Positions 792-1,102 of a stretch of DNA of 11,880 nucleotides are shown here, in pieces. Where the stretch lies: the IMG/VR virus record IMGVR_UViG_2602041579_000011, positions 1 through 11,880 of that record; one strand, written 5' to 3'. The translations under genes and the position numbers were made by a program. The notes below the pieces were generated by a model that was not told the origin of the DNA, ran no database searches, and was given only the letters and a program-made list of their open reading frames with translations. Positions within the stretch are counted from its first letter, which is position 1. Every line of letters starts with the position of its first letter. The stretch comes from a virus (lineage: Duplodnaviria > Heunggongvirae > Uroviricota > Caudoviricetes).

Positions 792-867
792 CTGGAGCGG
801 GCAGCGGGAATCGAACCCGCATCATCAGCTTGGAAGGCTGAGGTAATAGCCATTATACGATGCCCGC
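792..867 (-). tRNA. tRNA-Gly (anticodon UCC), glyT-like, with one extra nucleotide between D-arm and anticodon stem
   Basis: Reverse complement GCGGGCATCGTATAATGGCTATTACCTTCAGCCTTCCAAGCTGATGATGCGGGTTCGATTCCCGCTGCCCGCTCCA: perfect 7-bp acceptor stem, GGTTCGATTCC T-loop, anticodon loop CTTCCAA, encoded CCA. 76 nt, versus 75 nt for chromosomal glyT as I recall it. Confidence 0.75.
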
Positions 868-870
868 ATA

Positions 871-946
871 TGGTGCCGACTACCGGAATCGAACTGGTGA
901 CCTACTGATTACAAGTCAGTTGCTCTACCTACTGAGCTAAGTCGGC
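871..946 (-). tRNA. tRNA-Thr (anticodon UGU), thrU-like
   Basis: Reverse complement GCCGACTTAGCTCAGTAGGTAGAGCAACTGACTTGTAATCAGTAGGTCACCAGTTCGATTCCGGTAGTCGGCACCA: 7-bp acceptor stem, canonical D and T arms, anticodon stem ACTGA/TCAGT with loop CTTGTAA. Confidence 0.8.
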
Positions 947-948
947 AC

Positions 949-1025
949 TGGACCGCCACCGGGGACTCGAACCTCGCACACTCAACTTAAAGGGTTGACG
1001 CTCTTTCCTGATGAGCTAGTGGCGG
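949..1025 (-). tRNA. tRNA-like gene of uncertain identity (possible Lys-UUU-like, with atypical C at position 33); may be a pseudo-tRNA
   Basis: Reverse complement CCGCCACTAGCTCATCAGGAAAGAGCGTCAACCCTTTAAGTTGAGTGTGCGAGGTTCGAGTCCCCGGTGGCGGTCCA: perfect 7-bp acceptor stem (CCGCCAC/GTGGCGG), T-loop GGTTCGAGTCC, encoded CCA. But the anticodon loop is CCTTTAA, the 5' base is C, the discriminator is U and the T-stem has one mismatch. Confidence 0.45.
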
Positions 1026-1026
1026 C

Positions 1027-1102
1027 TGGTGGCCCTTGCTGGATTTGAACCAGCGACCTGGCGATTATGAGTCGCTCGCTCTCACCACTGAGCTAAAGGG
1101 CC
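1027..1102 (-). tRNA. tRNA with CAU anticodon, ileX-like (tRNA-Ile2, lysidine-type, AUA-decoding) rather than elongator Met
   Basis: Reverse complement GGCCCTTTAGCTCAGTGGTGAGAGCGAGCGACTCATAATCGCCAGGTCGCTGGTTCAAATCCAGCAAGGGCCACCA: anticodon loop CTCATAA; overall sequence very close to my recollection of E. coli ileX and unlike metT/metZ. Confidence 0.75.

Follow-up and report, generated by a model that had tools for sequence, protein, structure and literature searches.

A four-gene tRNA operon of Escherichia coli lambda-like prophages carries an anticodon-switched relative of argN with a non-canonical C33

The Shiga toxin (Stx) phages 933W, VT2-Sakai and Stx2a_F349 carry three tRNA genes, ileZ-argN-argO, downstream of the late antiterminator gene Q and the terminator tR'. 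A related cluster is present in the DNA analyzed here, an 11,880-nucleotide (nt) stretch that forms positions 1 to 11,880 of the IMG/VR virus record IMGVR_UViG_2602041579_000011 (Caudoviricetes; hereafter the window). The cluster consists of four minus-strand tRNA genes (positions 793-1102) between the Q gene and a gene for a P21-type holin, and one of them, here called LysL, is the main subject of this report. LysL is the second gene in transcription order and becomes the third only if the genes are counted from the low coordinate. As in the Stx phages, the genes lie downstream of Q and a tR'-like hairpin, the promoter and leader are common to both systems, and a similar terminator follows. 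The first gene is ileZ (identical to that of Stx2a_F349 at 76/76 positions) and the second, within a few nt of it, is homologous to argN, its closest relative (66/77 identical). The set nevertheless differs from the Stx-phage trio, as a first-pass annotation of this DNA had stated. The second gene has the anticodon UUU and C33 where argN has UCG and U33, copies of thrU and glyT stand in place of argO (the third Stx-phage gene, Arg UCU), and the tRNA genes are followed by the lysis cassette instead of stx. Alignment of the four genes with E. coli K-12 loci and Stx-phage genes places LysL in the argN family as an Arg-type scaffold whose anticodon arm has been rewritten to UUU with C33. By this comparison LysL is a new, anticodon-switched argN variant with a non-canonical base at position 33.

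The region is a real and common four-gene tRNA operon of E. coli lambda-like prophages. ARAGORN calls Met/Ile2-CAU (ileZ, 1027-1102), Lys-UUU (LysL, 949-1025), Thr-UGU (871-946) and Gly-UCC (793-867), all on the minus strand. Each gene matches the Rfam tRNA model RF00005 end to end, with scores of 72.5, 44.4, 73.8 and 64.9 bits, respectively, against a gathering score of 29 (E-values 1e-14 to 6.5e-07). The spacers between the genes are 1, 2 and 3 nt long and each gene encodes its CCA. The cluster described in the first-pass annotation stands with all four members. The NCBI Prokaryotic Genome Annotation Pipeline (PGAP) labels the first gene tRNA-Ile and LysL tRNA-Lys. In a BLAST collection of 5426 complete E. 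coli genomes, the whole cluster (at least 80% of the query covered) is present in 602 genomes (about 11%), often at 100% identity, and LysL is present in 798 (about 15%). An identical copy in RefSeq, from E. coli strain 165, lies in a lambda-like prophage with RusA, DUF968 and hokD genes on the early side and genes for lysozyme, Rz, terminase and HK97-type head proteins on the late side.

The differences between LysL and argN are concentrated in one part of the molecule. Seven of the 11 fall within positions 27-47, or eight if the variable-loop change at position 47 is taken to fall in that span. In the anticodon arm UCG is replaced by UUU, U33 by C, the G30-C40 pair by A30-U40 and the U27.G43 pair by U27-A43; one variable-loop base, at position 44, is also changed. 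The loop CCUUUAA, the C at the 5' end (paired as C1-G72) and the U73 discriminator had been reported in the first-pass annotation and are confirmed in the sequence and in the Rfam alignment. That annotation proposed either a Lys-UUU-like tRNA whose decoding is altered or a pseudo-tRNA in decay, and the two proposals are retained here in narrower form: C1-G72 and U73 are inherited family traits and not decay, because they are present in every argN variant. An A51.C63 mismatch in LysL is likewise found in one argN variant.

LysL retains the full tRNA fold, with stems of 7, 4, 5 and 5 bp, a TPsiC-type loop and the A51.C63 mismatch as its one defect (ileZ, thrU and glyT have one non-canonical pair each). 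The anticodon loop has the standard length of 7 nt and A37, and it departs from canonical elongator tRNAs at position 33, where U is near-universal. Lysyl-tRNA synthetase (LysRS) reads mainly the anticodon, and U34-U35-U36 is present in LysL. The discriminator, as throughout the argN variants, is not A73, a secondary LysRS identity element that the E. coli enzyme prefers. Global alignment with host lysT is poor outside the universal positions. The RefSeq label 'tRNA-Lys' for LysL follows from the anticodon alone and should be read with caution. LysL resembles anticodon-shifted tRNA genes that arise by recruitment in that a scaffold of Arg identity (its relatives have the anticodons UCG, CCU and UCU, and A20 is present in the sequences) carries a Lys anticodon. 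Recruitment, however, is normally inferred for genes that stay functional, whereas LysL has lost U33 and its function after the shift is a candidate only. A thrU-derived gene of Escherichia phage SerU-LTIIb (KU052038.1; positions 980-1055 of the minus strand of the locus examined, L213) occupies the Thr position and has the anticodon UCU (G35 to C) together with a D-stem mismatch; it is a second anticodon switch on a captured scaffold in such clusters.

The reading that we favor, and to which we give an even chance, is that LysL is dispensable, being at best a weak lysine decoder, or non-functional, under relaxed selection and not essential to the operon. Among about 115 IMG/VR clusters, the major sequence accounts for 65/115 of LysL copies and 104/114 of ileZ copies, and this lower uniformity is seen despite a search pattern that fixed 22 nt of LysL. 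Nucleotide diversity is 0.034 for LysL, 0.008 for ileZ and 0.007 for the Thr gene. The spacers failed as a neutral yardstick for diversity, the flanks being mosaic and not homologous between prophages. Among the 798 genomes with LysL, the copy is at least 99% identical to that of the window in 279 and 95-99% identical in 474, and sampled alleles of 97.4% and 96.1% identity have no tRNA annotation from PGAP. Variant alleles include a U8C/C4U/C11U haplotype, a 1-nt D-stem deletion in PPompW phages, and two independent deletions of the anticodon arm, one in locus L092 and one in Stx2c phage JNE082642. Low major-sequence share, high diversity relative to the neighboring genes, three independent deletion alleles, many copies that PGAP leaves unannotated, and C33 count in favor of a pseudogene and point to relaxed constraint on LysL.

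LysL also pairs with argO, because the LysL-derived copies of JNE082642 (L131, 401-466, with the anticodon-arm deletion) and PPompW (L003, 2501-2576, with the D-stem deletion) both lie between ileZ and argO. The neighbors are intact in both cases, and LysL thus decays while the genes around it do not.

Several observations weigh against dispensability. In the window allele of LysL the cloverleaf is intact and compensated and the loop is fixed, which speaks against a pseudogene. The changes in its anticodon stem relative to argN preserve pairing, and the non-singleton stem variants of LysL mostly give G.U pairs. The predicted cloverleaf energy is -22.3 kcal/mol, compared with -21.5 kcal/mol for the genuine thrU. 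The loop is the same as that of host tRNA-Lys (CUUUUAA) at six of seven positions, differing only at 33, and it is frozen among LysL copies apart from position 32, the only one that varies. C33 itself is fixed: a version of LysL with U33 and UUU was found 0 times in IMG/VR and the metagenomes, against 38 metagenome matches with C33. Finally, the compensated anticodon stem of the wider family to which LysL is assigned below argues for some kind of function. A pattern for other anticodons on the LysL arm (C33 with non-U35) returned only two chance matches, neither of them a tRNA.

The identity of the anticodons raises a different explanation. Defenses that cleave tRNA, such as PARIS, P2 Old and HepS, decide the outcome of phage infection, and they are carried by prophages or satellites or act on lambda-like phages. 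Recent work has shown that virulent phages counter such defenses with resistant tRNAs; to our knowledge, counter-measures have mostly been considered absent from temperate lambda-like phages. The tRNAs struck hardest by nucleases of the PARIS, Old and HepS type are Lys-UUU and Thr-UGU. A Lys-UUU-type gene on a foreign scaffold is found in lambda-like prophages of about 15% of finished E. coli genomes and, in the four-tRNA cluster (about 11%), it stands next to an extra Thr-UGU gene. It is possible, though doubtful, that LysL is a working nuclease-resistant tRNA-Lys(UUU), in which an Arg-type scaffold with a lysine anticodon would be charged by LysRS and remain unseen by the host or satellite tRNases that attack E. 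coli tRNA-Lys (AriB of PARIS, P2 Old and PrrC). The operon would then protect late translation of the lambda-like phage, and the Thr-UGU copy would add dosage of the other main target.

The sites recognized by these nucleases can be compared with LysL directly. AriB, whose prime targets are Lys-UUU and Thr-UGU, cuts between C40 and A41 in U36AAUCA41, and the changes U39A, A41C and U16C impair cleavage (PMC12409363). LysL has U36AAGUU41, with GUU at positions 39-41 where the host has UCA, and C16 where the host has U. thrU is the preferred target of P2 Old, the classic anti-lambda system, which depends on paired CNG motifs in the anticodon stem (PMC12445682); LysL has CAA/UUG in their place. 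Lambda-type tail tips trigger HepS of Gifsy-1, which also targets tRNA-Thr species (PMC13043305). PrrC cleaves tRNA-Lys 3' of U33 (PMC2610378), and this scissile nucleotide is the sole loop difference between LysL and host tRNA-Lys. LysL would plausibly escape AriB, Old, HepS and PrrC, and both the fixation of C33 and the intact stem favor a resistant tRNA, as does the enrichment of phage Lys-UUU tRNAs, and only those, in plasmid screens against AriB; according to the authors of the screens, suppression was seen with most library tRNAs that had an appropriate anticodon.

The case for resistance is weakened by the rest of the cluster and by LysL itself. The Thr copy is thrU and retains the AriB site and both Old CNG motifs; because every recognition element of thrU is kept, this copy could not be resistant and could help only by dosage. 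LysL combines U73 with the lack of U33, and LysRS prefers A73. Many natural copies of LysL are degenerate and deletions are tolerated. Furthermore, any foreign scaffold with a Lys anticodon would lack the AriB, Old and PrrC motifs by default, so that their absence from LysL is not evidence of selection. Compared with known nuclease-evading phage tRNAs, the anticodons are those of the two main nuclease targets and LysL departs from host tRNA-Lys at the critical positions, but here the carrier is a temperate lambda-like prophage rather than a virulent phage of the T5 type. The Thr copy is identical to the host target, and LysL, often degenerate, carries C33 and U73. A broader proposal is that LysL is a natural Arg-to-Lys anticodon-switched, cleavage-proof tRNA-Lys(UUU) of temperate lambda-like phages, directed against PARIS, P2 Old and PrrC, and that the argN scaffold is a chassis open to re-targeting, with rapid turnover of its anticodon arm in prophages and islands of Enterobacterales; we consider this unlikely. 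A working LysL would offer a natural test case for nuclease evasion and anticodon switching among temperate phages, and a non-working one would be a record of the turnover and decay of phage tRNA cargo.

LysL belongs to a family of tRNA-shaped genes in Enterobacterales whose arms are conserved and whose anticodon loop is hypervariable. A scan of one genome per species, based on the shared 5' acceptor/D segment and the T loop, returned 77 loci in about 40 species, almost all of them Enterobacterales (a few are unrelated genuine tRNAs of other phyla). The search pattern did not demand the complementary 3' acceptor strand, the T stem or CCA, and every family member retains all three. The anticodon arm varies in sequence and length, with loops of 3-9 nt in the fold used, and the ARAGORN anticodon calls are scattered or undefined. 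In a MAFFT alignment of the 16 members with 7-nt loops, compensatory changes are seen at 5/5 anticodon-stem pairs and 98.8% of cells are paired, whereas control structures slid by 1-3 columns are only 28-55% paired; the acceptor pair 7-66 also covaries. Position 33 is not U in 8/16 members (A in five, G in two and C in LysL), and the wobble base is U in 15/16.

This pattern has suggested another explanation, in which LysL and related genes yield tRNA-shaped RNAs whose job is not decoding. They might serve as a processing or stability element that RNase P and CCA-dependent enzymes recognize, as a decoy for toxins that target tRNA, or as a recombination target. Selection would then fall on the acceptor, D and T arms and on the presence of an anticodon helix, not on the loop. 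The sharing of arms and CCA by 77 loci whose loops differ in length and sequence is consistent with this, as are the compensated stem and the frequent replacement of U33. However, the members with U33 and A37 mostly have sensible Arg anticodons (UCG, CCU and UCU), which fits an Arg-type origin of the scaffold and suggests that the scaffold started out as a real tRNA and in many cases remains one. UUU or UUG is found with U33 in three Enterobacter/Scandinavium-type members. In LysL itself the loop is 7 nt long with A37, the 23 nt fixed by the family search pattern inflate the apparent conservation of the arms, and we know of no non-decoding activity for any family member. A non-decoding role for the family is, in our judgment, quite unlikely.

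One member bearing on that role is found in K-12 itself, at NC_000913.3 345334-345414 (plus strand), under the annotated xtpA/yahM open reading frames. The element is 81 nt long and folds into a perfect cloverleaf whose anticodon stem has 7 bp and whose loop has 6 nt, so that it cannot decode. It is nonetheless present in 5169/5426 E. coli genomes and invariant at 81/81 positions over five Escherichia species, against 56-78% invariant positions in the alignable flanks. A promoter-like sequence, TTGACA-17-CATAAT, lies about 100 nt upstream. This conserved tRNA-shaped element is a separate lead worth a look. Literature searches (ileZ/argN/argO and xtpA/yahM) found no paper on the LysL gene or its family in the literature that they covered.

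The genomic surroundings of the family are mixed. Some loci are in prophage late regions, and Pfam searches of the neighboring genes place many stand-alone members beside ordinary or island genes, which is in keeping with a non-decoding role. With the Q, holin and lysis proteins of this prophage as queries, tblastn supports a prophage context for only a few loci. An arrangement of Met, a family member (X), Thr and Gly recurs in Buttiauxella and Pseudescherichia, and partial versions (Met-X-Gly, X-Thr-Gly and Met-Gly-X) occur in Serratia, Yersinia and Edwardsiella. The loops of X in such arrays include CAUUUAA, CAUUAA and CACGAU. In Yersinia phage YeP2 (MK733260.1), a member with the loop CAUUGCC (A33, C37) lies between Q and a Met-CAU/Gly-UCC pair. 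The hypothetical protein QCW23461.1 overlaps this member on the opposite strand (L129, 279-479), and its coding sequence is probably spurious.

The remaining three genes of the cluster are ordinary. The CAU gene, ileZ, is 69/76 identical to K-12 ileX; Ile2-type CAU tRNAs read AUA after lysidine modification. The Thr gene is K-12 thrU at 76/76 positions and the Gly gene is K-12 glyT at 75/75. All three have the high-scoring cloverleaf, standard loop and identity to characterized genes that mark canonical bacterial elongator tRNAs. The first-pass annotation had suggested a 1-nt insertion in the Gly gene relative to glyT, between the D arm and the anticodon stem, and counted two of the four genes as structurally atypical. 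The insertion does not exist, and only the UUU gene is odd. With complete identity to glyT and 64.9 bits against the tRNA model, we give practically no credence to an aberrant Gly gene. It had also been allowed that all four genes might prove to be standard copies of chromosomal genes. This is true of Thr and Gly, which are identical to chromosomal genes; the CAU gene is the phage ileZ, and the UUU gene is neither standard nor a chromosomal copy.

In the chromosome, thrU and glyT both belong to the thrU-tyrU-glyT-thrT-tufB operon. The phage genes are the same base for base and in the same order, and the phage Thr-Gly spacer, TAT, corresponds to the T that follows thrU joined to the AT that precedes glyT. 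Unlike the chromosomal operon, the phage operon lacks tyrU (with 206 nt in all), thrT and tufB, and it sits in a prophage late operon. Because TAT is the expected junction, this suggests that the pair may have been captured together from thrU-tyrU-glyT and then lost tyrU and its spacers through a clean 206-nt deletion; the junction is a 3-nt match, expected by chance in 1 of 64 cases, and is thus weak evidence. The Thr-Gly pair is also found alone, just upstream of the holin gene in another Stx phage, and this occurrence identifies the cluster as a fusion of two modules, namely the ileZ and argN pair of Stx phages and the host-identical Thr-Gly pair. In three metagenome contigs (L225, L230 and L238), the prophage cluster seems to include thrU-tyrU(-glyT) together with the chromosomal spacers, and L225 runs on into a repeat that we take to be of the tyrT/rtT type. 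These contigs were considered as the ancestral captured operon and rejected. The arrangement was found in 0/5426 finished E. coli genomes, and exact repeats of 76 and 75 nt invite assembly chimeras; the contigs are probably chimeras formed through the thrU and glyT repeats.

Codon usage accounts for part of the cluster. Relative to K-12 reference frequencies, the prophage coding sequences are enriched 1.4-2.3 fold in AUA, about 1.5-1.8 fold in each of GGA and GGG, and 1.2-2.7 fold in ACA. These enrichments are in line with ileZ, Gly and Thr serving to supply decoders and do not explain the Lys gene. The most enriched rare codons are AGA/AGG, and the cluster has no Arg tRNA. Host tRNA-Lys(UUU) is abundant, with at least five gene copies in K-12, so a further supply from LysL would be unneeded, which also points to relaxed constraint on this gene. 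Codon compensation as the sole rationale was therefore rejected, with AGA/AGG unserved and a plentiful host tRNA already decoding the Lys codons.

The arrangement of signals is that of a self-contained cargo operon which would comprise, in order, a tR'-like hairpin, its own sigma-70-like promoter, ileZ, LysL, Thr-UGU, Gly-UCC, a terminator and the holin gene. In the lysogen, the operon would be transcribed from its own promoter, and during lytic growth there would be strong read-through by Q-modified polymerase. RNase P and 3' exonucleases would cut across the 1-3 nt spacers and release four RNAs. ileZ, Thr and Gly would act as ordinary tRNAs that raise the level of scarce decoders for AUA, ACA/ACG and GGA/GGG. 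LysL would still be made and would fold like a tRNA but, on the reading that it is dispensable, would represent one transient state of a gene family that turns over rapidly.

The features around the tRNA genes can be placed as follows. The Q gene is at 1297..1992 on the minus strand (Pfam PF06323, Phage_antiter_Q, E = 8.6e-92; antitermination protein Q in the identical RefSeq region). Between it and the tRNA genes, a terminator scan located a G+C-rich hairpin with U/T runs on both sides at 1205..1233 (minus-strand sequence AAAACCCGCCCACAAGCGGGTTTTTTGT), which resembles the intrinsic terminator tR'. The predicted sigma-70-like promoter, TTGCAA-17-TATTAT (1112..1140, minus strand; 9/12 matches in a promoter scan), has a -10 hexamer that ends 9 nt upstream of the 5' end of ileZ. 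It aligns with TTGCAG-17-TATTAT, annotated in VT2-Sakai as a 'putative tRNA promoter', and in both phages the same leader, CTGCGCCC, follows. An intrinsic terminator, GCCCGCTTTTGCGGGT followed by a T run, was predicted at 570..585 on the minus strand, 207 nt past tRNA-Gly and 69 nt ahead of the holin start codon; it resembles the annotated terminator after argO in VT2-Sakai. The first lysis gene encodes the P21-type class II holin (285..500, minus strand; PF04971, E = 1.4e-35; class II holin in RefSeq).

Two long inverted repeats lie on the minus strand in the gap between tRNA-Gly and the terminator, one at 741-785 (GTCTTTCAGTC/GACTGAAAGAC) and one at 663-733 (TTATGAATGATCGCC/GGCGATCATTCATAA). 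They have no Rfam match and travel with the Thr-Gly module. Farther away, 3.2 kb upstream of the tRNA operon, positions 4317-5183 (minus strand) encode a 288-aa FkbM-family methyltransferase (PF05050). This protein also scores 25.6 bits with the TRM5/TYW2 tRNA methyltransferase domain, below the cut-off of 28 bits, and in the otherwise similar prophage L001 no methyltransferase-named gene is present at the matching place. At 5373-5544 (minus strand), the window contains a sok antisense RNA of a hok/sok-type toxin-antitoxin system (Rfam RF01794, 108.3 bits), and RefSeq places hokD at the matching position of a related prophage.

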